Source: an uncultured Candidatus Saccharibacteria bacterium (GTDB lineage: Bacteria > Patescibacteriota > Minisyncoccia > Phycocordibacterales > UBA918). From it: a DNA stretch of 59,233 bases. Location: assembly GCA_964352875.1 (NCBI GenBank), contig CAYGTP010000001.1:31471-90703 (forward strand), written 5' to 3'. The notes beneath the pieces were generated by a model. It saw only the letters and a program-made list of their open reading frames with translations, was not told where the DNA came from and did not search any database. The position numbers and the translations under genes are program-made. Shown here piece by piece: positions 642 to 54,381 of this stretch. Numbering within the stretch: the first letter of the stretch is position 1; each line of letters begins with the position of its first letter.

Positions 642-670
642 TTGACACCATACCAGATTTCCCGTACTAT
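642..670 (+). promoter_or_regulatory. sigma70-like promoter candidate upstream of rpsS
   Basis: TTGACA (642-647), a 17-nt spacer, then TACTAT (665-670). It would produce a leader of about 240 nt before rpsS. Confidence 0.4.
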
Positions 671-816
671 AGCGCCGTTCCGAACCTCGTGGAATAGTCG
701 CCTGGCAGCAGCTATTGCACAACACTTGAACGTAGTGAAAATTCGTTGTTTTCACGCGCTACGGCGCAGCTACGGCCGGTGAATGTAGAACGGTTTTCCG
801 TTTTTATCCGTAATAA

Positions 817-912
817 GGGGAGTAGCGATTAGTTAGTTTGATGTTCATATTTTGCATTAGGAATCGCAAAATATGAACTAAGTTCGTAATAGTCGCTACG
901 CTCCTTTACTCA
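817..912 (+). promoter_or_regulatory. structured leader element, copy A (paired with 13428-13524)
   Basis: Closing stem GGAG-TAGCGA (819-828) pairs with TCGCTA-cg-CTCC (893-904). Inside is a 13-bp hairpin, gttcatattttgc/gcaaaatatgaac. A 30-nt 3' block at 883-912 is 29/30 identical to 13495-13524. The element ends 6 nt before the rpsS ATG. Confidence 0.5.
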
Positions 913-4988: not shown

Positions 4989-6248
4989 TTAGCGCTGCTT
5001 GATTTGCTCTCCGCGCAGCTCGTTGCCGAGGCTTTGGCTGGCCTGGAAGCAAAGCATAATCAGCACGCCCCAGATCATACCGAAGAAACCAGTGCCGAGC
5101 GCCCAGATGAGAATAGTAGCCACCATCTGCATCTTGGTGAGATTGAGTTTGGCACCGATCACGGTGGGCGTGTAGTTGTACGCCTCCAACAATCCGAGCA
5201 CCTTGCTGATCGCCAAAATGGCTCCGGTCTTGATCAGGAACACGTCGATCAGAAGACCAAACGACCCAATCTCAAACCCAAACCAGCCGAGACCGGGTTG
5301 GAAGTTGAGGATCATGAGTAGACCACCAACCCCCATCGCGATGGCACCGCCGATCTTCCAGATGGCGGTAATGAACCCGAGGGTGAGCGATATGAGGAGC
5401 AGGGCTCCCAAGCTCATGTTGAACGGAAACAGCACCATCAGCACGAAGTAGATAGCCGAGAGTGTCATCGCCACTTCAAGGAAACCGATCATGAGGACAC
5501 TCAGACCCTCTTGATACAGCTCAAGGTAGCGCATGAAATTACGCCGCAGCTGACTGTTCGGGTTGTTCGAGATCCCTTCGACTACGATGTAACGGAACCG
5601 GTCACACTCTGTTCGCCAGTACTTCATCATCTGGCCGAGCAAAATGATGCTGATAACAAGCAGGACCCAGTCCTTCAGCAGCACTCCGGTGACCTTCAGT
5701 GTGACGCTCGAGAGTGTCAGTGCGAGCTTCTTGAGGTCGCCGAACACTTGCCCAATGATGCCGCCCGTTACACCTGCGACGTCACCCTGAGGCACGAGAC
5801 CTGGCGCTACTTCGCGCGACCAGTTCAAAGTCTCATTGAGGGCTGCCATGATGGTGCCTTGCTGAGCCGCCAAACGTTCGGCGAACACTGTGCCCTGCTG
5901 CTGCAAGATAAACACCAGTACCGGAAACGCCGCGAATGCAAAGATGAGCAGCGATCGACTCACCAGCTTGGCAGCGGCGTCTTCGGAGCTCATTTGGAGG
6001 TGGAACGCTCGCTCGTAGCGTTTGCCTCGCCAATTGAGTGCAAAGGTCAGTCGATGACCTGATTGCGCGAGACGTTCGATGTGCGGACGCACGCCAATTG
6101 CAAACAAGATCGTCCCCAGCATGTAGGCAAAGCCTTTCCAGCTGAAGATAATCGGTAGCGCGATGAACGCGATCACGAAGAGGATGAGTGTCAGCGTATC
6201 CACTCGCGGTAGATAGCGATCCACTCGGCTCGGTTGGTAGGAGGTCAT
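4989..6248 (-). CDS. multi-pass membrane protein (419 aa), possibly AI-2E/UPF0118-like permease topology (unverified)
   Basis: The ORF is long, GC-rich and has many hydrophobic spans. AGAGG lies 9 nt upstream of the ATG. Its own terminator follows. Confidence 0.75.
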   Translation of the reverse strand: MTSYQPSRVDRYLPRVDTLTLILFVIAFIALPIIFSWKGFAYMLGTILFAIGVRPHIERLAQSGHRLTFALNWRGKRYERAFHLQMSSEDAAAKLVSRSLLIFAFAAFPVLVFILQQQGTVFAERLAAQQGTIMAALNETLNWSREVAPGLVPQGDVAGVTGGIIGQVFGDLKKLALTLSSVTLKVTGVLLKDWVLLVISIILLGQMMKYWRTECDRFRYIVVEGISNNPNSQLRRNFMRYLELYQEGLSVLMIGFLEVAMTLSAIYFVLMVLFPFNMSLGALLLISLTLGFITAIWKIGGAIAMGVGGLLMILNFQPGLGWFGFEIGSFGLLIDVFLIKTGAILAISKVLGLLEAYNYTPTVIGAKLNLTKMQMVATILIWALGTGFFGMIWGVLIMLCFQASQSLGNELRGEQIKQR

Positions 6249-6368
6249 GATTGGTACCTCTTTTTTATAAGAACAGCTCGGTCAAAAATTACCATAAAAC
6301 TTTACAAAGTCAATATGTGGTGGTAGGGTACGAGCGGAAAATAGGTAACACAAAGGAGCTAGGACACC

Positions 6369-7106
6369 ATGGAACCACTCCACCTTGTTGCGAATGAAAC
6401 AGTAGCCGCACTCACAGAGTATGCGCCTGCGGCAAGTGAGTACGCGAAGACATACCTCTTTGAGTTTTCGTTTGTGCTGCTTGGTCTCGCTACCGTTGCG
6501 GCGTTTTCGTACCTCAACCACCGTCGCATCCGACGAGCCTTGCGGCAGGGTCACCTTCCGCACGAAGTGATAGTAACGGTATGTATCTTCGATGAACAAC
6601 CTGATGGACGGGTATTCATCAAACCGCGAACAGTGCAGTCGGCTGAGCCGATTCTGCGAGCGTTTCCAAATCCAGCGCTCGTTGACATGATCATCAAAGC
6701 CACTAAGCGTTGTGATACGACCGCGCTCGGGTCGTTTATCATGTTGGGTGACCCGACCATGCATCATACGTTCATGAAGCGAGTGGTTGACATCGTATCT
6801 GAACTTGGCGGCCCTGGACATATCGTGCGCGCTTGTGGCGGAACGTTTGTGGAGTATGTCTGCTATTGTTGCGTGACGTTCTCGATGGATGGGCCGCATC
6901 GCAAAGTCCGGATCGACCTCATCAGTGAGCAGGATCTGCCGCAGCTTGTCGATGAGAACTATGTCGCTCGGTTGACCAATCGCCCAGAAGAAGGATCGCA
7001 TGCCGACTTGGTGGCAATTCTTCAGGTATGTGCTCGTAAACACCAGGAGCGGTCAAGCGACGTCGCAACGTACGTGCGTCGAGTGTCGATTTCGATACCT
7101 GCGTAG
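6369..7106 (+). CDS. hypothetical protein with an N-terminal membrane anchor (245 aa)
   Basis: AAGGAG lies 10 nt upstream of the ATG. A transmembrane span (FEFSFVLLGLATVAAFSYL) is followed by a basic stretch. I prefer it to the overlapping antisense ORF 6282-7043. Confidence 0.6.
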   Translation: MEPLHLVANETVAALTEYAPAASEYAKTYLFEFSFVLLGLATVAAFSYLNHRRIRRALRQGHLPHEVIVTVCIFDEQPDGRVFIKPRTVQSAEPILRAFPNPALVDMIIKATKRCDTTALGSFIMLGDPTMHHTFMKRVVDIVSELGGPGHIVRACGGTFVEYVCYCCVTFSMDGPHRKVRIDLISEQDLPQLVDENYVARLTNRPEEGSHADLVAILQVCARKHQERSSDVATYVRRVSISIPA

Positions 7107-7182
7107 TCGTTTCTCGGTCGCAACCTACGTTGCAGTCGAGACACACTAACATTCGCCGTGAGTAACGGAGAAGGAGGTACAC

Positions 7183-8106
7183 ATGTTCAAACGACTCTGG
7201 ACCCGATGTCAGGGAGAAGTGTTGGAGCTAATTCGGCTTGTCTTCCTGATTGGGCTGACGATCGCTGTGGCGGTCGGGGGGTATCTGGTCTACGAACGGT
7301 ACCTCCTGCAGACGATTGAGCTTCTACTTGAAGCGATGGGCTCATGGTGGGAAACACTCAGCATCGCTGGGTTGTGGCGAAACCTCGTCACCTGGTTTAT
7401 CGCCATGGGCCGCAATTGGGTGTTGGTGGAGATCCCGAAACGGCTAGCGATCCTCTACCTGGTCCCGACGATCGTGCTCATGTTGCTCCCGGGCACCTGG
7501 GTGTCAGCCATTAAGCGGTGGTTGCGGCGCCGCAAGGATAACGTACTTCGCTGCAAGAGCTGGTTCGTTGGCCACGCTGAGCGGTGGTTTGGCAAGTATG
7601 CGGGACACGCCATTGCAGCAATCTTGGCCCTCATATTCTTCGTGATCTTCTACAGCTTCTTTTCGGTCTACATGGTGCTGTGGCTTGGGTTCATCAAGCT
7701 CCCGAGCTCGGTGGTGTGGGTCTTTACGCTGGTGTGGGGTAAGTTGGTTTACTTTGCGCAGAAGCTTGGCTTCCGCAAGTGGGCCTTCCGTTTAACTGGC
7801 TGGATCGGTCGCCTCGCCCGACGCTGGATGGCGCCGATCGTGATGCGACTCATGCCAGATTTCCACTGGTTTCGGTGGATTGGTCGGAAACTCAGACTGA
7901 CCCGCCAGTTGACCGACGAGGAAAAGCGACAAAAGAAACGTGATCGTGTGCGCTGGGCGATTCGCCAGCGCTATCGCAATGCCGAATGGATTGTGAAGCG
8001 ACGAGAACGACTGGCTCGCATCGCACAGTTGCGTGGTCGGCGTGCGACTGCAGATCAAGTGTGCAGAGAGCAGACACCGCCGGTCTTGCCCAAGGCTGCC
8101 GAGTGA
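7183..8106 (+). CDS. membrane protein with a Trp/Arg-rich C-terminal tail (307 aa)
   Basis: GGAGAAGGAGG lies upstream of the ATG. Several transmembrane spans precede a tail reading RRWMAPIVMRLMPDFHWFRWIGRKLRL...KRRERLARIAQLRGRR. Confidence 0.75.
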   Translation: MFKRLWTRCQGEVLELIRLVFLIGLTIAVAVGGYLVYERYLLQTIELLLEAMGSWWETLSIAGLWRNLVTWFIAMGRNWVLVEIPKRLAILYLVPTIVLMLLPGTWVSAIKRWLRRRKDNVLRCKSWFVGHAERWFGKYAGHAIAAILALIFFVIFYSFFSVYMVLWLGFIKLPSSVVWVFTLVWGKLVYFAQKLGFRKWAFRLTGWIGRLARRWMAPIVMRLMPDFHWFRWIGRKLRLTRQLTDEEKRQKKRDRVRWAIRQRYRNAEWIVKRRERLARIAQLRGRRATADQVCREQTPPVLPKAAE

Positions 8107-8213
8107 ACCCTCGCCGCACCGTCCAAAGGACGGTGCGGCATTTACTTTTTAAAAAAATGTGCTTTAATTAAAAACAAACAGTACTTCAGTACTTCAAAAT
8201 AAAAGGAGGGACA

Positions 8214-9197
8214 ATGTCCAAAAATCACCACACTCGCTTTGGTGCGTTCATCGCCCTGGCGGGGGTGGTGGCGTACGTGCTGTGTCTCTGGGCGCCACCG
8301 ATTGTAATTGAATACCTACGTGAAGCCCAGGCATTTCTCGCCTGGCTGTGGATCGAGGTCTTCAAAGAGCAATTCTGGCAGAACGTGCTTCTGGTGGTGA
8401 GTATCTGGTTCAAGAAGTCGATTGTAAAGTCGATTATCATGGCCATTCTCACGCCGATCTTGCTCGTAGTATTTCTAGTCGCTCTCTTTGACGCCCGTGA
8501 CCGGCGTCGCATTAGGGCGTTCAAAGCCAAGCAGGTACGTCGCGCCAAGCTGTGGTACCGGTACGTGAAAGGATATTTCTACCGCACTTTTGGGTACTAC
8601 GGGATCTTCGCGCTGTTGATCTCGATCGTTACCATGGTGTGGGCCGCCTTCACGGTCAGTTGGCAAGTACTGGCTTGGCTGGTGTCGCTCGGTCCAGTGA
8701 AGCAGATTGCCATGCGACTGTACTGGGTAGTGCAGCCGCTGGTTGAACTTATCTGGCCATACGTTCAGATAATGCTGCGCAACCTCTACCACAACGTGCC
8801 GGGAGTGGCGCGAATCGTGAATGGAGTGAGTTGGCTATGGCATCGACTCATCACCGGTTGGATACCAGTCGTCTCGTACTGGCAGCGCCGGATTGGACGC
8901 CGGTTCGTACGCTTCCTGGTGCGGCAACGCTGGGTACGTGGGTACCTCCACGCCCAAGCCCGAGCGCGGATTCAAGAGATCCGTGAGGCACGACGGCTTA
9001 AGACCGAAGCGCGGATGCTCGGAATCGACCCGGATGGTGTGCCAGGACAAGGCTGGCGTGGTCGTAACTACGGTATGCGCTACGAACGGAATGCGCGTTG
9101 CGTATCCGACCGAGCCTGGGCACGGCTCATGCTTGGAGCAAACCTCAAGCCGACCCTCTGGGAAGGGGCGACCGTTTGCGGCCGCCCACCCGTCTAA
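8214..9197 (+). CDS. membrane protein with a Trp/Arg-rich C-terminal tail (327 aa), architecture like 7183-8106
   Basis: AAAGGAGGG lies upstream of the ATG. It shares a basic loop followed by an FGxYG motif and transmembrane spans with the upstream gene, and has the tail WQRRIGRRFVRFLVRQRWVRGYL. Confidence 0.75.
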   Translation: MSKNHHTRFGAFIALAGVVAYVLCLWAPPIVIEYLREAQAFLAWLWIEVFKEQFWQNVLLVVSIWFKKSIVKSIIMAILTPILLVVFLVALFDARDRRRIRAFKAKQVRRAKLWYRYVKGYFYRTFGYYGIFALLISIVTMVWAAFTVSWQVLAWLVSLGPVKQIAMRLYWVVQPLVELIWPYVQIMLRNLYHNVPGVARIVNGVSWLWHRLITGWIPVVSYWQRRIGRRFVRFLVRQRWVRGYLHAQARARIQEIREARRLKTEARMLGIDPDGVPGQGWRGRNYGMRYERNARCVSDRAWARLMLGANLKPTLWEGATVCGRPPV

Positions 9198-9338
9198 CCG
9201 CCCGGTGAAGTCTTCACTGGGCGGTTTATCTTTGACTTTTTTAAAATAAGTGCTATAATCACGGACAGCGACCGTGAGGTCAAAAAAAGAAAAAACAAGA
9301 TCTTTGCGGTCTTCACAAAACAAACTAAGGAGAACAAC

Positions 9339-11801
9339 ATGGAAGGAACTTCCGTCACTCCGGTTCCGCCGGAGCCGACCGATGACCAGCCGACGCTGGT
9401 CGGACGTTTGAAAAAAGCCGGCCGCACGACACTGCCGTTTGCGGTTAGTGGCGCCGTCGTCCTTGGGTACGTCTTCGTGCCCTACGTCGAGCAGAGCCTC
9501 AACTGGCTTACGGCCATGGGGCTGATTGGCCTCTCGTGGTTATGGGCTAATGGCTACGCCATGCCGGCCCTCTGGGGCGTTCTCCTCTACCTGGTGAACG
9601 CCATCGCCGGCTTCCGCGTGCGGACCTGGTTCTACAACATGGGCCGCGTCCGCGACGAGGCCAAGTCCAAAAACCTCGGCCGAGGTTTTCTTCACTCCAC
9701 CGTGAGTGTCAACGACTTCATCGCTGCCGCTCTTGTCGGTGTTGGCTACACCTTCTACACGATCGTCGCCACCCCGACCGAAGTCGGTGTCGCATCGCCC
9801 ACGCTGTGGGATGTGCTCACCGGTTGGCGAGCTCACCTTGAGCTCCTTGAGGTATCGGGCGGCGTACTGCTCGGTATCTGGGCAGCGCCGTGGCTCGGGC
9901 GACTTCTGCTCGGCTTTCGGTACATCGCTACACTCGGTCGTCGGGTGCACTACGAAGAGTGGCGGGTGCTTGTCTGGACGCTGCGGCAGATCGCCACGAT
10001 CTATAGCCGCCTCTACGAGTGGGGTCACCTTGACGCGAAGCTCACCGAAGAGGAGGAAGCTGCCAACCGGCAGGCTCTCGGCATCGCCCGGGTGACCATC
10101 TACCCCTTCGCGTTTGCGTACAATACGCTGCGTGGAGTCGGATGGTTTCTGTTCGGTCGCCGGGAAACCTGGAGTGGCTCGCTTTTCAAGGTACTCACCT
10201 GGATCATCATCCTCGTGGTACTGCCCTGGACGCGCGAGCTCTGGGCGCCGGTTTTGGTCAAGGTCGTTAATTTCGGCCTGTACCTACCGATCATGTCGAT
10301 GGCGATTGCTACCTTGTGGGGAGTCTACCGACTTTTCCGCTGGGTTGGTAACCTCACTCGCCAGTCGTGGATTGGTGAAGCGCTCGGTGTAACCGCCGTT
10401 GCGCTGCTGGCGATCTTCATGGCAAAGCTGGCCGATGAGGTGAACTACTACACCCACCTCTACGCTCAGCATGAGTCACTGGCAATCGTGCCGGTGAATG
10501 GGGCGACGCTGCCGGTCATGGTAGAGCCGCGGCTGTATCCGCTGGCGGTGATGCGAGACGGGATGAATGCCAAGCTCGAAGCTGGCGTCACCACGGCCTC
10601 CAATCCGGCCTATGTGTCGGTGGGTGACAAGCAGATGTGGACGGCCATGATCGACCGGCTCCACCTCATGGAGCGGTGGGCGAAACCGGCGACTGATTTG
10701 TTCGCTCTGCCGGCAACCTCGACCAGCGTGACGTTCGGGCGTGACGAAGGTCAGCGCCAGAGTGTCTGCTTCGATGCTCACCCGCAGGGTGTCGCGGGGC
10801 GAAATGTCTACACTGCCGCGCATCGTCGCTTGCCGCTCTCGCGGTTGGCCACGCACGAGCCGCACGAAATGCGGCTGATGCAGGACGATGCTGGCCGCTG
10901 GGTGCAGGTGGTTTCGTTCGGCCGGTTTGCCGGATTCCCGCGGCAGAAGAAATTCGGTGGGGTGGTCGTGATTCCCCAATGCAACCAGTACCAGCAGGTC
11001 TGGCTGCAGGGCACCTGGCTCGGCTCACTGTGGCCGGCGGGTGCTGAGGCGATTGACGACGCCATCCCTTCGATGGTCTATCGCGAACTCTTCGGTCTCG
11101 GCACGTACGTGTCACCGGAAGAGATTGCGGCTGGGAAGTTCTCCTTCCTGACGGGGAACAACCTGATTGCCGAGGCGACGGCCAGGCGGATTGCGGAAAG
11201 CTTTCGCTTCCACCGGGACGTTTGGGCGCCGTTCTCGACCAGTCGGTCGGGTGACGTGCGGATCCCAGACTCGGTCACGGACCGCAACCATATGCCGCAC
11301 TTTGGTAGGTGGGTGGGGTTGTCGGACCGATCGGAGCCAGCGATGTACGCGCATATCGCGCTGCAGCCGTGGGGCGAGGGTGACACCTTGGCCTATGATC
11401 TATGGATCCCGGCTGATGGTGCGACTGACGCCGATGGCCGACCGATTGTGTACATGCTCGATGCTACGGCGGAGGGGATGGACACGATGGACGGACCGAC
11501 GGCGGTCGCGGCCAAGGTTCGCAACGCTTTGCCGGAAGCGGTGTGGGGTCGGTTTGAGATCGCTGAGGTAACCGCCTACAAGCGGGAACTCGGCGGCTCG
11601 GTGCGATCGCTCTATTTGGCTCGATTGGTCAGTAAGAGTAATCGTGACAGCCTGGTGTTTACCAGCGATCTCCGGATGTACGTGTATGATCCGGAGTTCG
11701 CTCAGGTGCACCAACTTACCGACCCGGACGCCGGTGAGGTAGCCTGGGACGCCGAAATCCTTGCCGCCTTCGGCAAAAAGTGGGGCGTTACCCTGAAGTA
11801 A
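9339..11801 (+). CDS. large membrane protein (820 aa): N-terminal multi-transmembrane region of about 370 aa plus an unrecognised soluble domain of about 450 aa
   Basis: TAAGGAG lies upstream of the ATG. The ORF is long and uninterrupted in high-GC DNA, and a terminator follows. Confidence 0.85.
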   Translation: MEGTSVTPVPPEPTDDQPTLVGRLKKAGRTTLPFAVSGAVVLGYVFVPYVEQSLNWLTAMGLIGLSWLWANGYAMPALWGVLLYLVNAIAGFRVRTWFYNMGRVRDEAKSKNLGRGFLHSTVSVNDFIAAALVGVGYTFYTIVATPTEVGVASPTLWDVLTGWRAHLELLEVSGGVLLGIWAAPWLGRLLLGFRYIATLGRRVHYEEWRVLVWTLRQIATIYSRLYEWGHLDAKLTEEEEAANRQALGIARVTIYPFAFAYNTLRGVGWFLFGRRETWSGSLFKVLTWIIILVVLPWTRELWAPVLVKVVNFGLYLPIMSMAIATLWGVYRLFRWVGNLTRQSWIGEALGVTAVALLAIFMAKLADEVNYYTHLYAQHESLAIVPVNGATLPVMVEPRLYPLAVMRDGMNAKLEAGVTTASNPAYVSVGDKQMWTAMIDRLHLMERWAKPATDLFALPATSTSVTFGRDEGQRQSVCFDAHPQGVAGRNVYTAAHRRLPLSRLATHEPHEMRLMQDDAGRWVQVVSFGRFAGFPRQKKFGGVVVIPQCNQYQQVWLQGTWLGSLWPAGAEAIDDAIPSMVYRELFGLGTYVSPEEIAAGKFSFLTGNNLIAEATARRIAESFRFHRDVWAPFSTSRSGDVRIPDSVTDRNHMPHFGRWVGLSDRSEPAMYAHIALQPWGEGDTLAYDLWIPADGATDADGRPIVYMLDATAEGMDTMDGPTAVAAKVRNALPEAVWGRFEIAEVTAYKRELGGSVRSLYLARLVSKSNRDSLVFTSDLRMYVYDPEFAQVHQLTDPDAGEVAWDAEILAAFGKKWGVTLK

Positions 11802-11834
11802 CCCTCCACACTCTGATCTCATCGTGAGATCCGC

Positions 11835-11868
11835 GCGCGCAGCTATAATGGCTGCGCGCTTTTCTTTT
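11835..11868 (+). terminator. intrinsic terminator of the 820-aa gene
   Basis: gcgcgcagc pairs with gctgcgcgc, followed by ttttctttt. Confidence 0.8.
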
Positions 11869-11882
11869 GTAGCGGTAACTAC

Positions 11883-11917
11883 GTAAAAACGCCCACGGAA
11901 TGAGTTCCGTGGGCGTT
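11883..11917 (-). terminator. intrinsic terminator of the 11926-12675 gene
   Basis: aacgcccacggaa pairs with ttccgtgggcgtt, and a T run follows on the minus strand. Confidence 0.75.
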
Positions 11918-11925
11918 GTATTGGG

Positions 11926-12675
11926 TTAGTGTGCCTGGAGTAACGCGCCGAACTGACTCGGCAACTCCTCGAGCAGTGACCACTCATTGCCCTTGGGTGT
12001 GTCACACCCGAGCGCTGCTGTCATGTAGGCGGCTGCGTTATCAGGTAGCCCGTTGTCGCGAAGGTGCTGGAAGGTGGGAGATGTTCGAATTGCTTGCTCG
12101 ATTGCTGGACCTTTTTCGGGCAAGAATGTCGCTAACAGGTCAGCAACCGGAGCTGACTGATGACCGTCGACTGCTTGGTGGGCATAAATCAGATCCAACA
12201 GCACATCAGTTCGCTTACTTTCGCTGATACTGTCACCGGCTCGGCCGAGCAAGTAGAGGCCGAGGTATTTTTGCGCCAAATGCTCCTCGGCCGACTGTGT
12301 ACGGTGACGCCGTGATTTCAGCAGTGTTAATCCTGCCCGCAGCAGCACCGAGCGAAGTAATGACTCGATTCTCTCGTCGAGGCCAATCGTACGATTGAAG
12401 CCAGCGGCTTGTTCGGCACTGAGTGAGGCCCGAGCGGCTTTTAACTGGACCGCGAACTGCACCACGGTGCGCAAGTCAGAGGCTCCACTGAGCGACTGTA
12501 CCAGACGAATGAGATCACTCGTATTCGTGTATCGACCCAGGTCCTCACTGAGTTTGTCTGTGGTTGCTCGCACATCAAACCCATGCTGCCACAAACGGTT
12601 CAGTAGGTAAGGCGCAACAACATTGCTACCAAAAAACTTCAGTGCCAAGATGGCTGTCGTGGTAACCAGTGCCAT
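11926..12675 (-). CDS. hypothetical, mostly helical protein (249 aa)
   Basis: GGAGGG lies upstream of the ATG. The ORF is clean. No family recognised. Confidence 0.75.
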   Translation of the reverse strand: MALVTTTAILALKFFGSNVVAPYLLNRLWQHGFDVRATTDKLSEDLGRYTNTSDLIRLVQSLSGASDLRTVVQFAVQLKAARASLSAEQAAGFNRTIGLDERIESLLRSVLLRAGLTLLKSRRHRTQSAEEHLAQKYLGLYLLGRAGDSISESKRTDVLLDLIYAHQAVDGHQSAPVADLLATFLPEKGPAIEQAIRTSPTFQHLRDNGLPDNAAAYMTAALGCDTPKGNEWSLLEELPSQFGALLQAH

Positions 12676-12816
12676 AAGACCCTCCTGTTGTGTCTGTAGT
12701 CATTAAACTATAATTTTATAATTTGTAAACAACATGAGGGTTGTGGTACATGCTTCAGTAGCTGAACAAAAAACCAGCCCACGGTAATCATCGTAGGCTG
12801 GCAGAGTGCTATGGAG

Positions 12817-13008
12817 TCACTCAGGCTGTGTCTGTGTGCTGTCGAGCGGTGGTCTGGAGACCACTCCACCACGTTTGATTTCGGTCAGGGTGAGTCGCCC
12901 CGCCTCAACTACCATGCCGGCAGTCATAAGGCGAAGCAGCCACTTAGCGACCAGAGGCGTCAGTTTCGTACCCGTAGCCACGGCCACGGGGATGAGTAGC
13001 ATCGGCAT
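12817..13008 (-). CDS. small hydrophobic protein s2 (63 aa)
   Basis: I chose the internal ATG at 13008 because AAGGAG lies 7 nt upstream and the start overlaps the stop of s1 (TGAtATG). The product begins MPMLLIPVAVATGTKLTPLVAKWLL... Confidence 0.5.
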   Translation of the reverse strand: MPMLLIPVAVATGTKLTPLVAKWLLRLMTAGMVVEAGRLTLTEIKRGGVVSRPPLDSTQTQPE

Positions 13009-13251: not shown

Positions 13252-13284
13252 GGGCGCGAGCGAAGCTCGCGCCCTTGTTATTTC
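13252..13284 (+). terminator. GC-rich hairpin with a T-rich tail at the right edge of the island
   Basis: gggcgcgagc, loop gaa, gctcgcgccc, then ttgttatttc. Confidence 0.4.
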
Positions 13285-13394
13285 ATGTAATTCTGGTATT
13301 GTTGGCCACATCAACGCTGGGCAATAGCGCAGCGGGGAAGGCGAGCAAGCGTTGGCTAGCCAGCCGGATTTATCAGGGAGTACGTCACCGATTC

Positions 13395-13423
13395 TTGGTG
13401 ATACGGCTTCAAACAATTAAATA
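13395..13423 (+). promoter_or_regulatory. candidate promoter feeding leader element copy B and rpsN
   Basis: TTGGTG, a 17-nt spacer, then TAAATA. The -10-like box lies 4-5 nt before the 5' arm of the element, and copy A has TAATAA in the same position. Confidence 0.3.
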
Positions 13424-13427
13424 GAGA

Positions 13428-13524
13428 AGAGTAGGGCGATATGTTCGGTCTACGTCCGACGATGTGCTGGGAAGGCACATCTTAAGGACGTACTTTCGTA
13501 ATAGTCGCTACGCTCTTTTACTCA
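13428..13524 (+). promoter_or_regulatory. structured leader element, copy B (paired with 817-912)
   Basis: The closing stem pairs AGAG-TAGggCGA with TCGCTA-cg-CTCT. The inner hairpin pairs tacgtcc...gatgtgc with gcacatc...ggacgta. The 3' block 13495-13524 matches copy A and ends 3 nt before the rpsN ATG. Confidence 0.5.
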
Positions 13525-13527
13525 AGC

Positions 13528-13713
13528 ATGGCACGAACATCAATTGTGGTGCGCGCATCACGCGAACCTAAGTTCAAATGTCGAGTGGTACGACGGTGTC
13601 ATCTTTGTGGCCGCAAACGCGGGTACATGCGAGACTTTGACATGTGTCGTATTTGCTTCCGCGAAGCCGCTCACGAAGGACACATTCCAGGAGTTAAGAA
13701 ATCATCATGGTAA
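13528..13713 (+). CDS. rpsN: 30S ribosomal protein S14, short zinc-ribbon (type Z) form
   Basis: 61 aa with CxxC...CxxC ([20 protein letters not shown]). It directly precedes S8. Confidence 0.95.
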
Positions 13714-30497: not shown

Positions 30498-32855
30498 ATG
30501 AGTCAGGTCCTTTCAAAGTTCGTTCGCGCGGCAAATTATTTGTCCGCGGCCCAAATTTATTTACGAGGTAATTATTTATTAGAAGAGCCATTAAAGCCCG
30601 AGCATATCAAGTCGCGCCTACTCGGGCACTGGGGAACGTGCCCCGGGATTAACTTTACCTACGCACATTGCAATCGAGCTATCATCGCACACAACCTAAA
30701 TATGTTGTTTGTGTTGGGACCAGGGCACGGCTTTCCAGCTGTCCAAGCAAACCTGTTTCTTGAGGGTACCTTGTCTAAATATTACAAAGACGTTCCACGC
30801 AACCGCGCTGGCCTTGCACACATGGCCAAACAATTTAGTTGGCCGTATGGTTTTCCGAGTCACAGCAATCCAGAAGCACCTGGGGTAATCCTCGAAGGTG
30901 GCGAGTTGGGCTACGCGTTGGCTACCTCTTTTGGTGCCGTGTTGGACAACAAAGACCTGATCGCGACGTGTTTGATTGGAGACGGCGCAGCCGAAACTGG
31001 CCCGACCGGGACCGCCTGGCACATCAACAAACTCCTTGACCCCGCTCACAACGGGGCCGTGCTGCCAATCTTGCATCTCAATGGGTACAAAATTTCTGGA
31101 CCAACATTCTTTGGCCGGATGAGTGACGAAGAACTGACGAGTCTCTTTTGGGGGTATGGATATGAACCATTCATTGTGGATGCCTATGTCGAAGAAGATG
31201 TCCATGCCAAGATGATGGAAGTGTTTGATACGGCGGTACAAAATATTCGCTTTACCCAACATTGCGCGCGTGAAGGCACGCTCGGTGAGACTCCGCGTTG
31301 GCCTATGATAATTCTCCGTACGCCAAAAGGGTGGGGCAGTATTGATTATATCGGTGATAAAAAAATCGAAGACAATCACTATTCGCACCAAGTCATTGCT
31401 GAAGCGGCTGCCACGGACCCAGCCCAACTTGCGCAACTCGAAGCCTGGTTGCGGTCATATAAATTTGAAGAATTGTTTGATGGCGAGCGATTTGATCAAG
31501 ACATTGAATCACTTATCCCTGGGCCCGAGTACCGCATGGGAAACAATTCGCACACTATGGGAGGCGAACCGGCCTATCGACCGCTCAAACTACCGGCACT
31601 AACTAATTACCAAGCTCCGTCGGTGTGTCACATGGATGACCCGACTTGTGGGGAACTCAGTAGCATGGAGAAAATCGGCCGCTTTTTGCGAGACGTCATC
31701 AAAGACAATGAAGTCGAGCGTAACTTTCGTATTTTCTCTCCAGACGAAACCTACTCCAACAAACTTGGTGCGGTATTTGAAGTCACCAACCGTACCTTTG
31801 TTTGGCCGCACAAAGAGTGGGACAAAGACTTAGCTTGGGACGGTCGGGTAATGGAAATGCTATCCGAACATAGCCTCCAAGGTTTGATGCAAGGTTATGT
31901 ACTAACCGGCCGGCACGGAGTCTTCCCGTCCTACGAAGCCTTTATGCAAATAGTGGCAAGTATGGCTGATCAGTATGCCAAGTTCCTCCATGTCGCCCGT
32001 GACGTAGAGTGGCGCGGAAAAATCCCTTCACTCAACTATATTTTGACCTCGTCTGGCTGGCGCCAGGAGCACAATGGTTTCTCTCACCAGAACCCAGGCT
32101 TTATCGACGGTGCATTGCAACGACAGGGTTGCTTTAGTAACGTCTATTTCCCAGCTGACGCCAACACGGCTTTAGTAACGATGAGACACATGCTTGAGTC
32201 CACTCAAGAAATCAACATACTGGTCTGCGGCAAGCGCCCACTCCCGTGTTGGCGTACGCTCGAAGAAGCTGAGACCGACTTTGCCGAGGGGGTAAACATT
32301 TGGGAGTTTGCGAGTGACGAGGATCCGCATATTGTGTTTGCTGCCATTGGAGATTATCTCACCAAAGAAACCTTGGCTGCGATCAACCTTATCCATCAAG
32401 ATATTCCAGAATTACGGGTACGGTTTGTAAACGTCACGTCACTGTCCGCGATGGGGATCGGCCACTCACAGTGCCGAGTCTTGCGCCATGATTTTGATCA
32501 TTACTTTACTCCTGACAAACCCGTTCGAATTAACTTTCACGGCTACCCACAAACAGTAAAGCAAGTTCTGTTTGATTATGGTTGTGACGTCGCGCGTTTC
32601 AAAGTACATGGGTATATCGAAGAGGGCTCTACGACCACTCCGTTTGACATGATGGTACGAAACCGCACTGACCGCTATCACTTTGTGATGGAAGCAATTG
32701 CAGCGGCAGAGGTACAAGGAGTTATTACTACCGAAGTTGCCAATGAACTCATGAGTCGCTACGAAACAAAATTGGTCGAACATCGAGCTTATGCAATTGA
32801 GCATGGTGATGACCCAGCCGAAATTACAAACTGGGTATGGCAATCACGTTCGTAA
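30498..32855 (+). CDS. xfp: xylulose-5-phosphate/fructose-6-phosphate phosphoketolase
   Basis: LLGHWGTCPGINFTYAHCNR and the length of about 785 aa fit. I chose the start at MSQVLSKF. Confidence 0.93.
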   Translation: MSQVLSKFVRAANYLSAAQIYLRGNYLLEEPLKPEHIKSRLLGHWGTCPGINFTYAHCNRAIIAHNLNMLFVLGPGHGFPAVQANLFLEGTLSKYYKDVPRNRAGLAHMAKQFSWPYGFPSHSNPEAPGVILEGGELGYALATSFGAVLDNKDLIATCLIGDGAAETGPTGTAWHINKLLDPAHNGAVLPILHLNGYKISGPTFFGRMSDEELTSLFWGYGYEPFIVDAYVEEDVHAKMMEVFDTAVQNIRFTQHCAREGTLGETPRWPMIILRTPKGWGSIDYIGDKKIEDNHYSHQVIAEAAATDPAQLAQLEAWLRSYKFEELFDGERFDQDIESLIPGPEYRMGNNSHTMGGEPAYRPLKLPALTNYQAPSVCHMDDPTCGELSSMEKIGRFLRDVIKDNEVERNFRIFSPDETYSNKLGAVFEVTNRTFVWPHKEWDKDLAWDGRVMEMLSEHSLQGLMQGYVLTGRHGVFPSYEAFMQIVASMADQYAKFLHVARDVEWRGKIPSLNYILTSSGWRQEHNGFSHQNPGFIDGALQRQGCFSNVYFPADANTALVTMRHMLESTQEINILVCGKRPLPCWRTLEEAETDFAEGVNIWEFASDEDPHIVFAAIGDYLTKETLAAINLIHQDIPELRVRFVNVTSLSAMGIGHSQCRVLRHDFDHYFTPDKPVRINFHGYPQTVKQVLFDYGCDVARFKVHGYIEEGSTTTPFDMMVRNRTDRYHFVMEAIAAAEVQGVITTEVANELMSRYETKLVEHRAYAIEHGDDPAEITNWVWQSRS

Positions 32856-51883: not shown

Positions 51884-52807
51884 ATGCCCCAATGGAACGC
51901 AGGAGGAGTAAAGCTCCCACACGGTCCGTATATGATCGGTGCCGGTGTCTGCAAGACACCAGCCACCACTGAGGAGTGGCTTAAGGTCGCTCCGGTCGTA
52001 TCTGGTTCATACACACCGCAGCAGCGCGATGGAAATCCAGGCAAGGTCGTCTGGCCGGACTCCCTCGAAGAAATGCTTCGCATCGGTTACGGACTCAACA
52101 GCTACGGTATGCCCAATGCGGGTTTTGCCGCGGCTGCTACCAGTTTCCTTCAGTCGCAGAAAACTGAGCAACCGCTCATCGTGAGCGTCGCTGGCTTCTC
52201 GGTCGACGACTACGTGCTCGGTGTCAGGACATTTGGCGTTGTTTCGAATGTGACTGCGATTGAGCTCAACTTTGGGTGTCCCAATACCCAAGGCGAGCAT
52301 AATACTATCGTTTCCTTCGATCCTGATACAGTCTGGCAGATCATGCTTGGGATCGGACGTCTGGAGTTGCAAAAACCCATCTGGGTCAAACTGTCTCCGT
52401 ACAGCAACCCCCAAGACCTGCAGCGGATGGCTGAAATACTCAATCACTGCGTCGGTCCTCAACCGTTGGCTGTGGTGACTTGCAATACGTTTCCGAACGC
52501 CTTTGCAGGGGAAGGATTGATCGACCCCAATAGCGGTATGGCTGGTCTCTCAGGACCGGTGATGAAGCCAATCGCGCTCGGACAAGTCAAGCAGTTTCGC
52601 ACGCATCTCGACGAGCAGATCGATATTATCGGCGTTGGTGGTGTCACCACTGGCGACGATGTCGTCGATCTCCTCGAAGCTGGCGCCCAAGCGGTGCAGA
52701 TCACGTCGCTAGCCCACTGGGCTGGTGATCCACGGCGATTCCACCAACATCTACTCATCGGTGAGCGTTCTTCGCGTCTCGTCGAATACCTCACCAACGA
52801 CGCCTGA
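51884..52807 (+). CDS. pyrD: class 1-type dihydroorotate dehydrogenase family protein
   Basis: ELNFGCPNT, GLSGPVMKPIAL and IIGVGGVTTGDD are present. Confidence 0.8.
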   Translation: MPQWNAGGVKLPHGPYMIGAGVCKTPATTEEWLKVAPVVSGSYTPQQRDGNPGKVVWPDSLEEMLRIGYGLNSYGMPNAGFAAAATSFLQSQKTEQPLIVSVAGFSVDDYVLGVRTFGVVSNVTAIELNFGCPNTQGEHNTIVSFDPDTVWQIMLGIGRLELQKPIWVKLSPYSNPQDLQRMAEILNHCVGPQPLAVVTCNTFPNAFAGEGLIDPNSGMAGLSGPVMKPIALGQVKQFRTHLDEQIDIIGVGGVTTGDDVVDLLEAGAQAVQITSLAHWAGDPRRFHQHLLIGERSSRLVEYLTNDA

Positions 52808-52820
52808 AAGGAGGCACTAA

Positions 52821-53957
52821 ATGCAAGTACTACTTCAAAAAGATTCTGAATTTCGGGAGCTTGCCCTTTTCAATCATGAATCGGGTCAAGCAATCGTTTT
52901 CAACAAGGGTCTTGTCGACATCCACTCCCACGGTCGCGACAACAATGCGGTTCTCGGGAATGGAATGACCGACATCCTTGACCATTCGGTGCGTCAATTT
53001 GGCATGGTTCTGCTCATGCCGAACCTGGCTGGTAGGGATGCGCTCATGACCTGGCGAATGGCCATCGACTACTGGGAGCGTGCAACGCGCGCCAGTGGCG
53101 TGAAGCCAGACATGATGCGCATTCTGGTTACGGTCTATCTCAATACTGACCTGACCGAAGATGACATCAAGCGCATCGCCAACGATCCACGGGTCGCCGG
53201 TATCAAGTCCTATCCGGCGCACGGCACTACCGGTGCTGAGCATGGGCTGCGGACCCCGTTTGAAGCGGCAAAGCAGCTCGAGTGGATGGAGAAGTATGGT
53301 GTGCCGCTTCTGGTTCATGGCCAGATGCGGACGCAACTCAACGGCGAGATCCTTGACGAATGGGATCGTGAACCGTATTTCTACACCGAAGTTGCTCCTG
53401 TCCTTGATGATGCTTTCCCGGAACTTCGCATTTCCTACGAGCATCTTTCGACTGGGATTGGCGCACAAACCGTGGCAGAACGGAAGGGACCAACTCAAGG
53501 CACTTTCACCATTCTTCACCTCGGCTACACCCGTACTGACGTGATGGACACCGGTGTTCGCACCGACATGGTGATGAAGCCGATGGTGCAACACGAACGT
53601 GAGCGACCCAAACTCTGGGAAGTTTTTCGGGCAGCACCTGATCGCTTCGCGCTCGGTTCTGACGATGCGTGGCATCCTATAACTGCCAAGCATACCAAAA
53701 ACTGTGCTTGTGGTGGCTGCTATGGCCCCTACCGGGTCGGCTACTACCTCGACGTATTCGAAGAAGCACAAGCGCTAGACCTCTTCGGTCGGTTCGCTTG
53801 CGTCAACGCAGCGCGCTTCTATGGCGTCGAGGTGCCAAAGAAACGCATTGAAATGCGGAAAGGTAACTACACGGTTGCTGAAATGCTGCCGTTTGGCGAC
53901 CACAAGGCGCAGCCACTCCATGCTGGTGAAAAGCGGTTTGGGTGGTACCAAGTCTAA
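52821..53957 (+). CDS. pyrC: class II (E. coli PyrC-type) dihydroorotase homolog
   Basis: The protein is collinear with PyrC landmarks: DIHSHGRD, MPNL, KSYPAHGTTG, PLLVHGQ, YEHLST, GSDDAWH and CGGCYG. Confidence 0.8.
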   Translation: MQVLLQKDSEFRELALFNHESGQAIVFNKGLVDIHSHGRDNNAVLGNGMTDILDHSVRQFGMVLLMPNLAGRDALMTWRMAIDYWERATRASGVKPDMMRILVTVYLNTDLTEDDIKRIANDPRVAGIKSYPAHGTTGAEHGLRTPFEAAKQLEWMEKYGVPLLVHGQMRTQLNGEILDEWDREPYFYTEVAPVLDDAFPELRISYEHLSTGIGAQTVAERKGPTQGTFTILHLGYTRTDVMDTGVRTDMVMKPMVQHERERPKLWEVFRAAPDRFALGSDDAWHPITAKHTKNCACGGCYGPYRVGYYLDVFEEAQALDLFGRFACVNAARFYGVEVPKKRIEMRKGNYTVAEMLPFGDHKAQPLHAGEKRFGWYQV

Positions 53958-53988: not shown

Positions 53989-54024
53989 AGGGCCTGGCGG
54001 CATGTTCGCCAGGCCTTTAATTTT
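53989..54024 (+). terminator. intrinsic terminator after the pyrC-like gene
   Basis: ggcctggcg pairs with cgccaggcc, followed by tttaatttt. Confidence 0.75.
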
Positions 54025-54037
54025 ATAAATTAATATA

Positions 54038-54139
54038 GAGGTTCTAATTTCCAAACATCTCTCCAAAATACAACAAAACGAGCCTTATAAAATAAGGCTC
54101 GTTTTGCTTCGGATTTGGTGGGAGACTTTGTACCAAGCT
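54038..54139 (+). repeat. junction repeat B, copy X (about 100 nt, with an internal hairpin)
   Basis: The copy gaggttctaatttccaaacatctctccaaaatacaacaaaacgagcc...ggctcgttttgcttcggatttggtgggagactttgtaccaagct is roughly 90% identical to 55450-55550. Confidence 0.85.
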
Positions 54140-54241
54140 GACCTAGAAATTAAGGAGAGCCTGCTCGACTATAATTTCGGAAATACTCTGGTGGTGGACC
54201 TAGAAATTAAGGAGAGCCTGCTCGACTATAATTTCGGAAAT
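54140..54241 (+). repeat. tandem direct repeat (two 45-nt units, 12-nt spacer, 57-nt period)
   Basis: gacctagaaattaaggagagcctgctcgactataatttcggaaat occurs at 54140-54184 and at 54197-54241. It lies inside the insertion that separates B from A in copy X. Confidence 0.9.
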
Positions 54242-54326
54242 TGAATGAAACAACGAGCGTAGCGATTATGTTGAATTTATGTCCCGATTTGTTCTGTCCT
54301 TGGACAAATCGCTGGACGCCTGGTAA

Positions 54327-54381
54327 AACCTCTATTATTGAAATGGAGTGTCCCAATTTTTTGAAGGTGGTTGATTTGTGG
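54327..54381 (+). repeat. cassette junction repeat A, copy 4 (extended form)
   Basis: The copy reads aACCTCTattATTGAAATGGAGTGTcccAATTTTTTGAAGGTGGTTGATTTGTGG. Confidence 0.85.

Follow-up and report, generated by a model that had tools for sequence, protein, structure and literature searches.

The structured elements immediately upstream of rpsS and rpsN in the 59,233-nt stretch of DNA analysed here (the window) are neither a ribosomal leader nor an insertion-junction module; they are two old copies of a Paceibacteria repeat that were taken into ribosomal 5′ UTRs. Together with a third copy elsewhere in the window, these elements (copies A and B at rpsS and rpsN, and copy C) probably represent an undescribed dispersed structured repeat of a Paceibacteria subclade within the Candidate Phyla Radiation, REP/MITE-like in character and, in its leader copies, closed into a hairpin.

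The initial annotation had described two structured copies, one before each gene, and this description was reproduced in most respects. A 30-nt block, TTCGTAATAGTCGCTACGCTC(C/T)TTTACTCA, lies on the forward strand at 883-912 and 13495-13524, identical at 29 of 30 positions; 6 nt separate its 3′ end from the rpsS ATG (919), and 3 nt separate it from the rpsN ATG (13528). Scanning the window with up to three mismatches returned only these two block matches, where shuffled sequences are expected to give none. Both copies have strong predicted RNA folds (−39.8 kcal/mol, z = −6.1 against shuffles, for A; −42.8 kcal/mol, z = −4.9, for B), in which a 5′ arm and the block form a long basal stem around an inner hairpin. 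In copy A, the arm (5′ strand of this basal stem, P1) is a degenerate inverted copy of the block at 810-831, placed by the minimum free energy (MFE) fold and by folds of individual leaders. The inner hairpin P2 spans 843-878, and the block, which supplies the 3′ strand of P1 and in the family also forms a local hairpin, ends at 912; the family covariance model R1 aligns to 830-918 with 74.9 bits. Copy B has its arm at 13423-13448, P2 at 13451-13492 and an R1 match at 13440-13530 (59 bits), all on the forward strand like those of A. At the one position where the blocks differ (C/T), the opposing base is G in copy A (GGGGAG) and A in copy B (GAAGAG), confirming that the change in the outer helix is compensatory. 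The basal stem is indeed irregular, and the 2-nt CG bulge first reported is one of two registers between which the MFE fold is ambiguous, the other being a 1×1 A·G loop; the inner hairpins, unrelated in sequence, have 13 bp in A, as reported, and 7+8 bp rather than 7+7 bp in B.

Variable stem positions of the block provide a further comparison between the two copies. Other genomes have different stems in the blocks of the two genes (in L161, for example, TAAA/TTTA against ATAA/TTAT), and in the window both blocks carry the same one (GTAA/TTAC), yet their P2 hairpins are unrelated (compared with L002, L034 and L161). The identical block stems suggest recent copying or gene conversion between A and B.

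The element is not confined to two copies in the window. R1, built from 66 copies and run on the window with filters off, detected exactly three copies, and its top match was neither A nor B but copy C at 54240-54331 on the reverse strand (86.5 bits, E = 4.6e-18; P2 54281-54317, block 54246-54275). Copy C is intergenic and antisense to both of its forward-strand neighbours, pyrC and an uncharacterised gene, and no ribosomal gene is nearby. Its surroundings hold several other features. A tandem direct repeat of ~58 nt (54120-54236) adjoins it, and a 46-amino-acid open reading frame (54104-54244) reads through this repeat and takes its stop codon from the terminal TCA of the copy C block. Terminator-like hairpins lie close by at 53989-54017 (forward) and 54072-54108 (reverse).

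Beyond the window, the same element is scattered at unrelated genes. Across 1.19 Mb of sequence from relatives, R1 found 15 copies: rpsS follows 11 of them and rpsN 3, and L002 and L018 each have one at another site. In 0.73 Mb of anchored loci it found 133, of which ~33 lie beyond the anchors, which corresponds to a density of about one per 20 kb. Among metagenome contigs, a degenerate pattern matched at least 120, and with relaxed matching the block was seen upstream of rpsS in ten relatives and of rpsN in three. Among the 139 copies listed from metagenomes and genomes, only ~22 precede rpsS (18) or rpsN (4). At the same sites, the element is present in some related genomes and absent from others. 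P2 usually differs between copies of one genome, and it falls into subfamilies that are shared both within and between genomes; the two L161 copies, for example, share one P2 type with L082, L188 and copy C. Tandem or nested copies with periods of 75-142 nt occur in L108, L143, L151 and L087. Rfam 15 gave nothing at the gathering threshold for the window and only chance-level matches in E-value mode for both leaders, and a literature search found no description of the repeat. A phage origin was rejected, as 2.9 million viral contigs yielded a single copy.

The core unit is ~75 nt long and consists of P2, a conserved linker (N-UAAAUUC) and the 30-nt block, followed by TCA-YTYA. The median span of P2 is 39 nt; its purine-rich loop contains G-G, and its predicted stability is −16 to −19 kcal/mol on either strand. 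The block folds into a small irregular hairpin comprising a 4-bp covarying stem, a 1-nt bulge, a 2×2 pyrimidine mismatch, two covarying pairs and a triloop. Within it, changes at positions 4-7 are matched at 24-27, and those at 13 and 14 are matched at 19 and 18, nearly always as Watson-Crick pairs. Covariation, proposed at the outset as a check on more copies, proved strong: in an alignment of 66 copies (A3), 90% of the cells are paired, compared with 25-50% in slid controls, and 336 cells show double changes, compared with 110 in shuffles. Copies at one gene in different genomes, such as those at topA in L122, L184 and L185, likewise show compensatory changes. Although L5 identity between the genomes is only 70-80%, around 20 positions of the block do not vary, and some of these are single-stranded.

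Read from either strand, the local hairpin of the block has only marginal thermodynamic stability (−1 to −3 kcal/mol, z close to 0), so that its covariation would need a partner. The reverse strand is slightly more stable, and there the mismatches read as tandem G·A pairs next to a GNA triloop. Such pairs and triloops are typical protein-binding features, and in the modelled fold they point to a bound partner. Counts of G·U versus A·C, together with the energies, are symmetric between strands for P2 and favour neither RNA nor DNA.

Several further structural candidates were rejected. A pseudoknot between the P2 loop (AGGA) and CUCCUUU of the block fails because block position 22 varies (C in 68, G in 55) with no matching change in the loops of the few copies inspected. 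Neither a hammerhead nor a k-turn can be built from the GA motifs of the reverse strand, as on inspection the core and the 3-nt bulge, respectively, are missing. A promoter within the block that would serve leaderless downstream genes was discarded, since the hexamer at the right distance has no key A at position 2. Enriched k-mers to the left of P2 come only from orthologous rpsS leaders, with no sequence conserved there across copies, which excludes a larger conserved element on that side.

Copies are all intergenic or at gene edges, and the block side sits tightly against the coding sequence. Among the listed copies, the flanking genes are in ++ configuration at 37, −− at 30, divergent at 22 and convergent at 10. 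Same-strand genes start 0-9 nt after the block in 32 of 69 cases; these include S19, the commonest single neighbour (17-18 listed copies), topA (3), recR (2), L11/rplK, EF-P/efp and atpG. Opposite-strand genes stop at −3 to +4 nt of the block in 23 of 50 cases, among them gyrA (3), S10/rpsJ (2), S7/rpsG, frr, pyrH, thyA, SMC and priA. The terminal consensus TCA-TTTAA-T fits both arrangements: in reverse it supplies TGA and TAA, and forward it forms part of the ATG context. On the P2 side, by contrast with the tight block side, a gap of ~100-200 nt separates the element from the gene. Orientation relative to GC skew is unbiased (36:26, p = 0.31), and a replication-strand bias was rejected on this count; the ribosomal copies follow the skew simply because their operons do.

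To place the two ribosomal copies, we compared the window with its closest relatives. Retrieval with L5 assigns it to Patescibacteria/Paceibacteria, with best relatives at 79-80% L5 identity, and 76 related loci (L001-L076) were compared. A search of sequencing runs found the window in one DNA run only, from a biofilm metagenome; no RNA run turned up for L106, and RNA runs found with L161 gave only distant matches to S19 coding sequence, which end at the start codon. As originally described, both copies immediately precede a gene with which the ribosomal cluster resumes after non-ribosomal DNA: rpsS (S19; 919-1248, forward; Pfam PF00203, E = 9.7e-30) opens the rpsS-to-rplE unit, and rpsN (S14; 13528-13713, forward; Pfam PF00253, E = 9.9e-24) opens the rpsN-to-secY unit. 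Between rplE and rpsN, the 76 loci have anything from ~25 nt to 8 kb, and the genes upstream of rpsS differ (radical SAM, NrtR/NUDIX, DUF3298); in L003 and L039, rplB lies 700-800 nt from rpsS with other open reading frames between. A TTGACA/TATAGA-like promoter and a short hairpin leader precede both rpsS and rpsN in nearly all of the 76 loci. Relatives that lack the element at these junctions, a comparison raised in the initial annotation, still have promoter-like sites and leaders before both genes. Given the variable guest genes and the clade-wide promoters and leaders, the rplB/rpsS and rplE/rpsN breaks are old, variable and common to the clade, and are not recent cuts in need of repair. 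The proposal that the element restores expression of cut-off genes therefore loses its basis, as rpsS and rpsN start their own units clade-wide, with or without it.

The junctions themselves show a varied content. Across L001-L076, the rplB-rpsS and rplE-rpsN junctions hold differing guests of 0 to 8 kb (NADAR, radical SAM, NrtR/NUDIX, DUF3298 and others); both are recurrent hot spots of integration or rearrangement in the clade. In the window, the insert between rplE and rpsN (~4.5-13.2 kb) is a high-GC island (55-61% compared with 45-50%). Its six or seven open reading frames at 4989-13008 all carry strong Shine-Dalgarno sites, and the six largest had no match in Pfam, PHROGs or NCBIfam; this island was probably acquired horizontally. 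Copy B is not its terminus, as had been considered: the island stops short of a terminator (13252-13274), and the native rpsN leader separates copy B from the island. A second higher-GC segment (51884-53957), again with Shine-Dalgarno sites, encodes a dihydroorotate dehydrogenase-like protein and a dihydroorotase (pyrD and pyrC). These pyrimidine-synthesis genes were probably acquired as well, and copy C lies ~280 nt downstream of them. Shine-Dalgarno sites precede 14 of 75 native genes, equal to background, and many native genes (for example those starting at 30498, 43330, 47792(−), 51176(−), 55610(−) and 58354(−)) carry a TAnnnT box whose end is ~7 nt from the ATG, which suggests that leaderless mRNAs are widespread in this organism.

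The rpsS and rpsN copies are found inside long 5′ UTRs that have no Shine-Dalgarno site, between the native leader and the start codon. The −10-like box that had been noted before the 5′ arm gave way to a conserved promoter-like site further upstream, TTGACA-17-TACTAT at 642-670 (forward; 10 of 12 positions matching), ~240 nt upstream of rpsS. The motif and the leader that follows it recur in L002, L013 and other relatives. Copy A thus occupies the 3′ third of a ~240-nt rpsS 5′ UTR, ~170 nt downstream of the promoter-like site, and the conserved promoter-like sites and native leader structures all lie upstream of the element, contrary to the claim that it carries a promoter. The region between promoter-like site and element, 675-810 (forward), is a second conserved leader, with motifs such as GTTCCAACCTC...GTTGGGAAC and GGCCGTTACC in relatives (L011, L017, L021, L033, L002, L013 and L076); it may act as a ribosomal-protein leader for the rpsS-rplE unit.

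Directly 5′ of copy B, the native rpsN leader forms a hairpin at 13362-13411 (forward) with an invariant GUC...GA(U)AC core. This hairpin is common to 24 genomes, with compensatory changes in 8 of 10 pairs (alignment A4), and resembles the S8 site, helix 21 of 16S rRNA (compared with E. coli rrsH); it is not in Rfam. By this resemblance it is likely the S8 autoregulatory site of the rpsN-rpsH unit. In most relatives, 6-16 nt separate the hairpin from the ATG; in the window the distance is 109 nt, and only the window, L016, L034 and L002 have the repeat between the two.

What sets the leader copies apart is P1. Its upstream arm is a decayed inverted copy of the block that pairs with the block and linker, and many C-to-T changes in it produce G·U pairs. 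The mean predicted arm-block pairing is −14.9 kcal/mol for copies before start codons, compared with −9.4 for a control region, −11.0 for copies at stop codons (weaker than at start codons, p = 0.002) and −10.9 on the opposite strand. Significantly strong pairing is thus found mainly in copies just before start codons, and elsewhere it is at control level. P1 appears in MFE folds of ~20 rpsS, rpsN and rplK leaders, with compensatory changes, and the L002 rpsN copy has kept P1 and lost P2. In the folded model, P1 would close the inserted ~100 nt into one long hairpin; because the native regulatory site and the A/U-rich start region would thereby stay adjacent, the insertion could be tolerated. 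The P1 hairpin may further confer stability or provide a processing site.

Among known repeats, the element is close to the REP and REPIN sequences of Enterobacteria and Pseudomonas, which have RAYT transposases. Like these, the repeat is a short, conserved, imperfect palindrome, dispersed between genes in tens or more copies, often at stop codons and in either orientation; in both cases inverted doublets sometimes pair into one long hairpin, and both are vertically inherited and long-lived. Unlike REP sequences, the repeat has no GT(A/G)G tetranucleotide at the palindrome foot: in the block consensus, CTAC/GTAG occurs only around the apical triloop, where position 16 is variable, and the stem feet read NNNA/TNNN. 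The repeat also includes the variable hairpin P2 and a conserved linker, has a much lower copy number, and its copies within a genome are not near-identical. We searched all open reading frames of ~1.9 Mb of loci (partial genomes) with E. coli RayT using phmmer and obtained one match, in L157; no link between a RAYT and the repeat emerged in this ~1.9 Mb, as the only Y1 gene has its own palindromes. That gene, an IS200-like Y1 transposase at L157 9330-10050 (Pfam Y1_Tnp, E = 3.1e-7; HYH and YIHLNP motifs), stands between two identical copies of a perfect 25-nt palindrome, ACTTAAGACATCGATGTCTTAAGTT, unlike the repeat. It lies just upstream of a umuC/dinB-like gene and constitutes a separate palindrome/transposase pair of the same lineage.

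The repeat also resembles miniature inverted-repeat elements (MITEs) such as Correia/NEMIS, ERIC/IRU, RUP and BOX. It shares with them a length of ~75-120 nt, a non-coding intergenic location, a predicted transcription within UTRs and long predicted RNA hairpins that could alter mRNA stability or processing, as well as subfamilies, presence or absence at orthologous sites and, in full-length copies, inverted arms with TG...CA-like ends. It differs in that most copies have no left arm, no parent insertion sequence was found, and conservation is concentrated in the 30-nt block while the inner hairpin drifts with compensation. By eye, no target-site duplication was apparent between occupied and empty rpsS and rpsN leaders of relatives; the copies are old, and duplications may have decayed.

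Other known elements fit less well. Ribosomal-protein leaders (S8/spc, L4/S10) share a covarying structure and, for two of the copies, a position in the 5′ UTR before the first cistron of ribosomal operons, but the repeat flanks many non-ribosomal genes in both orientations and shows no rRNA mimicry. Integron attC sites are likewise imperfect palindromes, conserved at the ends, variable in the centre and with extrahelical bases, and they too abut gene ends and sometimes provide the stop codon; the repeat consensus lacks RYYYAAC/GTTRRRY core sites, however, and its copies stand singly beside core housekeeping genes, in both orientations and with neither cassette arrays nor an integrase context, so attC sites were rejected. 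TIGR arrays of TIGR-Tas systems comprise 5-15 tandem units, with 8-12-nt repeats alternating with ~9-nt spacers, near a Nop-domain gene (PMC12045711). This identity was rejected too, as copies here are solitary or at most duplicated (75-142-nt periods) and their variable parts are 3-nt palindromic stems.

These observations bear on what the element is. The module first proposed, a portable promoter/leader specific to ribosomal operons that restores rpsS and rpsN after foreign DNA, now appears extremely unlikely, even though A and B do open units after non-ribosomal DNA and rpsS is the commonest neighbour. Structure and evolutionary portability were borne out by covariation and by presence or absence at the same sites, but ribosomal specificity and an own promoter were not: ~85% of listed copies lie at other genes, half of them reversed, copy C is unrelated to ribosomal genes, relatives without the element have their promoter-like sites and leaders all the same, and no promoter-like site was found within A, B or C, the conserved promoter being ~170 nt upstream of A. 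Intrinsic terminators or independent small-RNA genes are only slightly more credible, and very unlikely. The strength of P2, the many copies directly after stop codons and the location of copy C between two terminator-like hairpins would suit them; yet neither P2 nor the block is followed by a U-tract on either strand (the sequence after P2 is AUAAAUUC), a terminator scan flags none of the three window copies, no conserved promoter or common sequence exists left of the element, and copies lie 4-6 nt before start codons within conserved 5′ UTRs. We regard as distinctly unlikely a single-stranded DNA hairpin or a cruciform that acts as DNA, irrespective of transcription, as a site for a recombinase, HUH nuclease, topoisomerase/gyrase, or replication or uptake factor. 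Block pairs that are nearly all Watson-Crick with G·U almost absent, a P2 with occasional wobble and no strand preference, and an orientation independent of transcription agree with such a site, as does the similarity of the block's bulge and mismatches to hairpins recognised by Y1 transposases, whose genes occur in the lineage. The lack of GC-skew bias argues against a replication-strand-specific process, however, the sole Y1 transposase found has other flanking palindromes, uptake or architectural sequences would be expected at a higher density than one copy per ~20 kb, and the G·U-rich P1 of the 5′ UTR copies shows selection at the RNA level.

More weight attaches to a cis-acting signal of the host, in which a Paceibacteria protein would bind the block and P2 and mark gene boundaries, for example as an RNase site at which 5′ UTRs would be trimmed to near-leaderless mRNAs and 3′ ends set, or as a binding site controlling mRNA stability or translation for many housekeeping genes; we consider this possible, though doubtful. 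It would account for invariant block positions, unpaired ones included, at 70-80% L5 identity, for individual copies that keep their structure through compensatory changes, for block ends placed precisely at start and stop codons, and for the tandem G·A pairs, GNA triloop and slightly higher stability of the reverse-strand block; in a Shine-Dalgarno-poor, apparently leaderless organism, moreover, leadered genes might need special handling. Yet the orientations to flanking genes are roughly equal, so one RNA-level mechanism cannot serve every copy, P2 is equally stable on both strands, and the P2 subfamilies, the patchy distribution and the nested or tandem copies are in keeping with a spreading repeat. 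A more specific form of the idea, which we judge unlikely, is host punctuation of gene boundaries: a Paceibacteria protein would read the block and linker and define mRNA ends, with P1 gating access to the block in ribosomal leaders. Long regulated 5′ UTRs, for example, could then be trimmed to near-leaderless mRNAs in an organism otherwise without Shine-Dalgarno sites. The probable reading, a dispersed REP/MITE-like repeat, has opposing evidence of its own. No transposase, target-site duplication or fresh insertion was found, per-copy compensatory changes look like selection on each copy and would be unusual for a purely selfish repeat, and most copies are without the left arm that a classical MITE with two terminal repeats would have. 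As a REP/MITE-type element, the family would be mobile now or would have been so formerly, and the block would be nearly invariant because it is recognised by a putative family-specific protein.

For annotation, recognising the repeat averts a false S19/S14 leader family and adds, with R1, a covariance model for a family that Rfam does not contain. The repeat can now be told apart from leaders that appear to be truly regulatory, among them the S8-site-like hairpin upstream of rpsN, and its leader copies exemplify one way in which DNA inserted between a regulatory site and the start codon may be tolerated, namely by folding into a closed hairpin. Candidate Phyla Radiation genomes are tiny and tightly packed, and persisting repeats are not expected in them. 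This ~75-nt element has nonetheless been retained across genera in tens of copies per genome, with a near-invariant block and structure-preserving changes. Such conservation implies a dedicated trans-acting factor, and with it either a long-lived association between repeat and host of the REPIN-RAYT kind or a new signal at gene boundaries.
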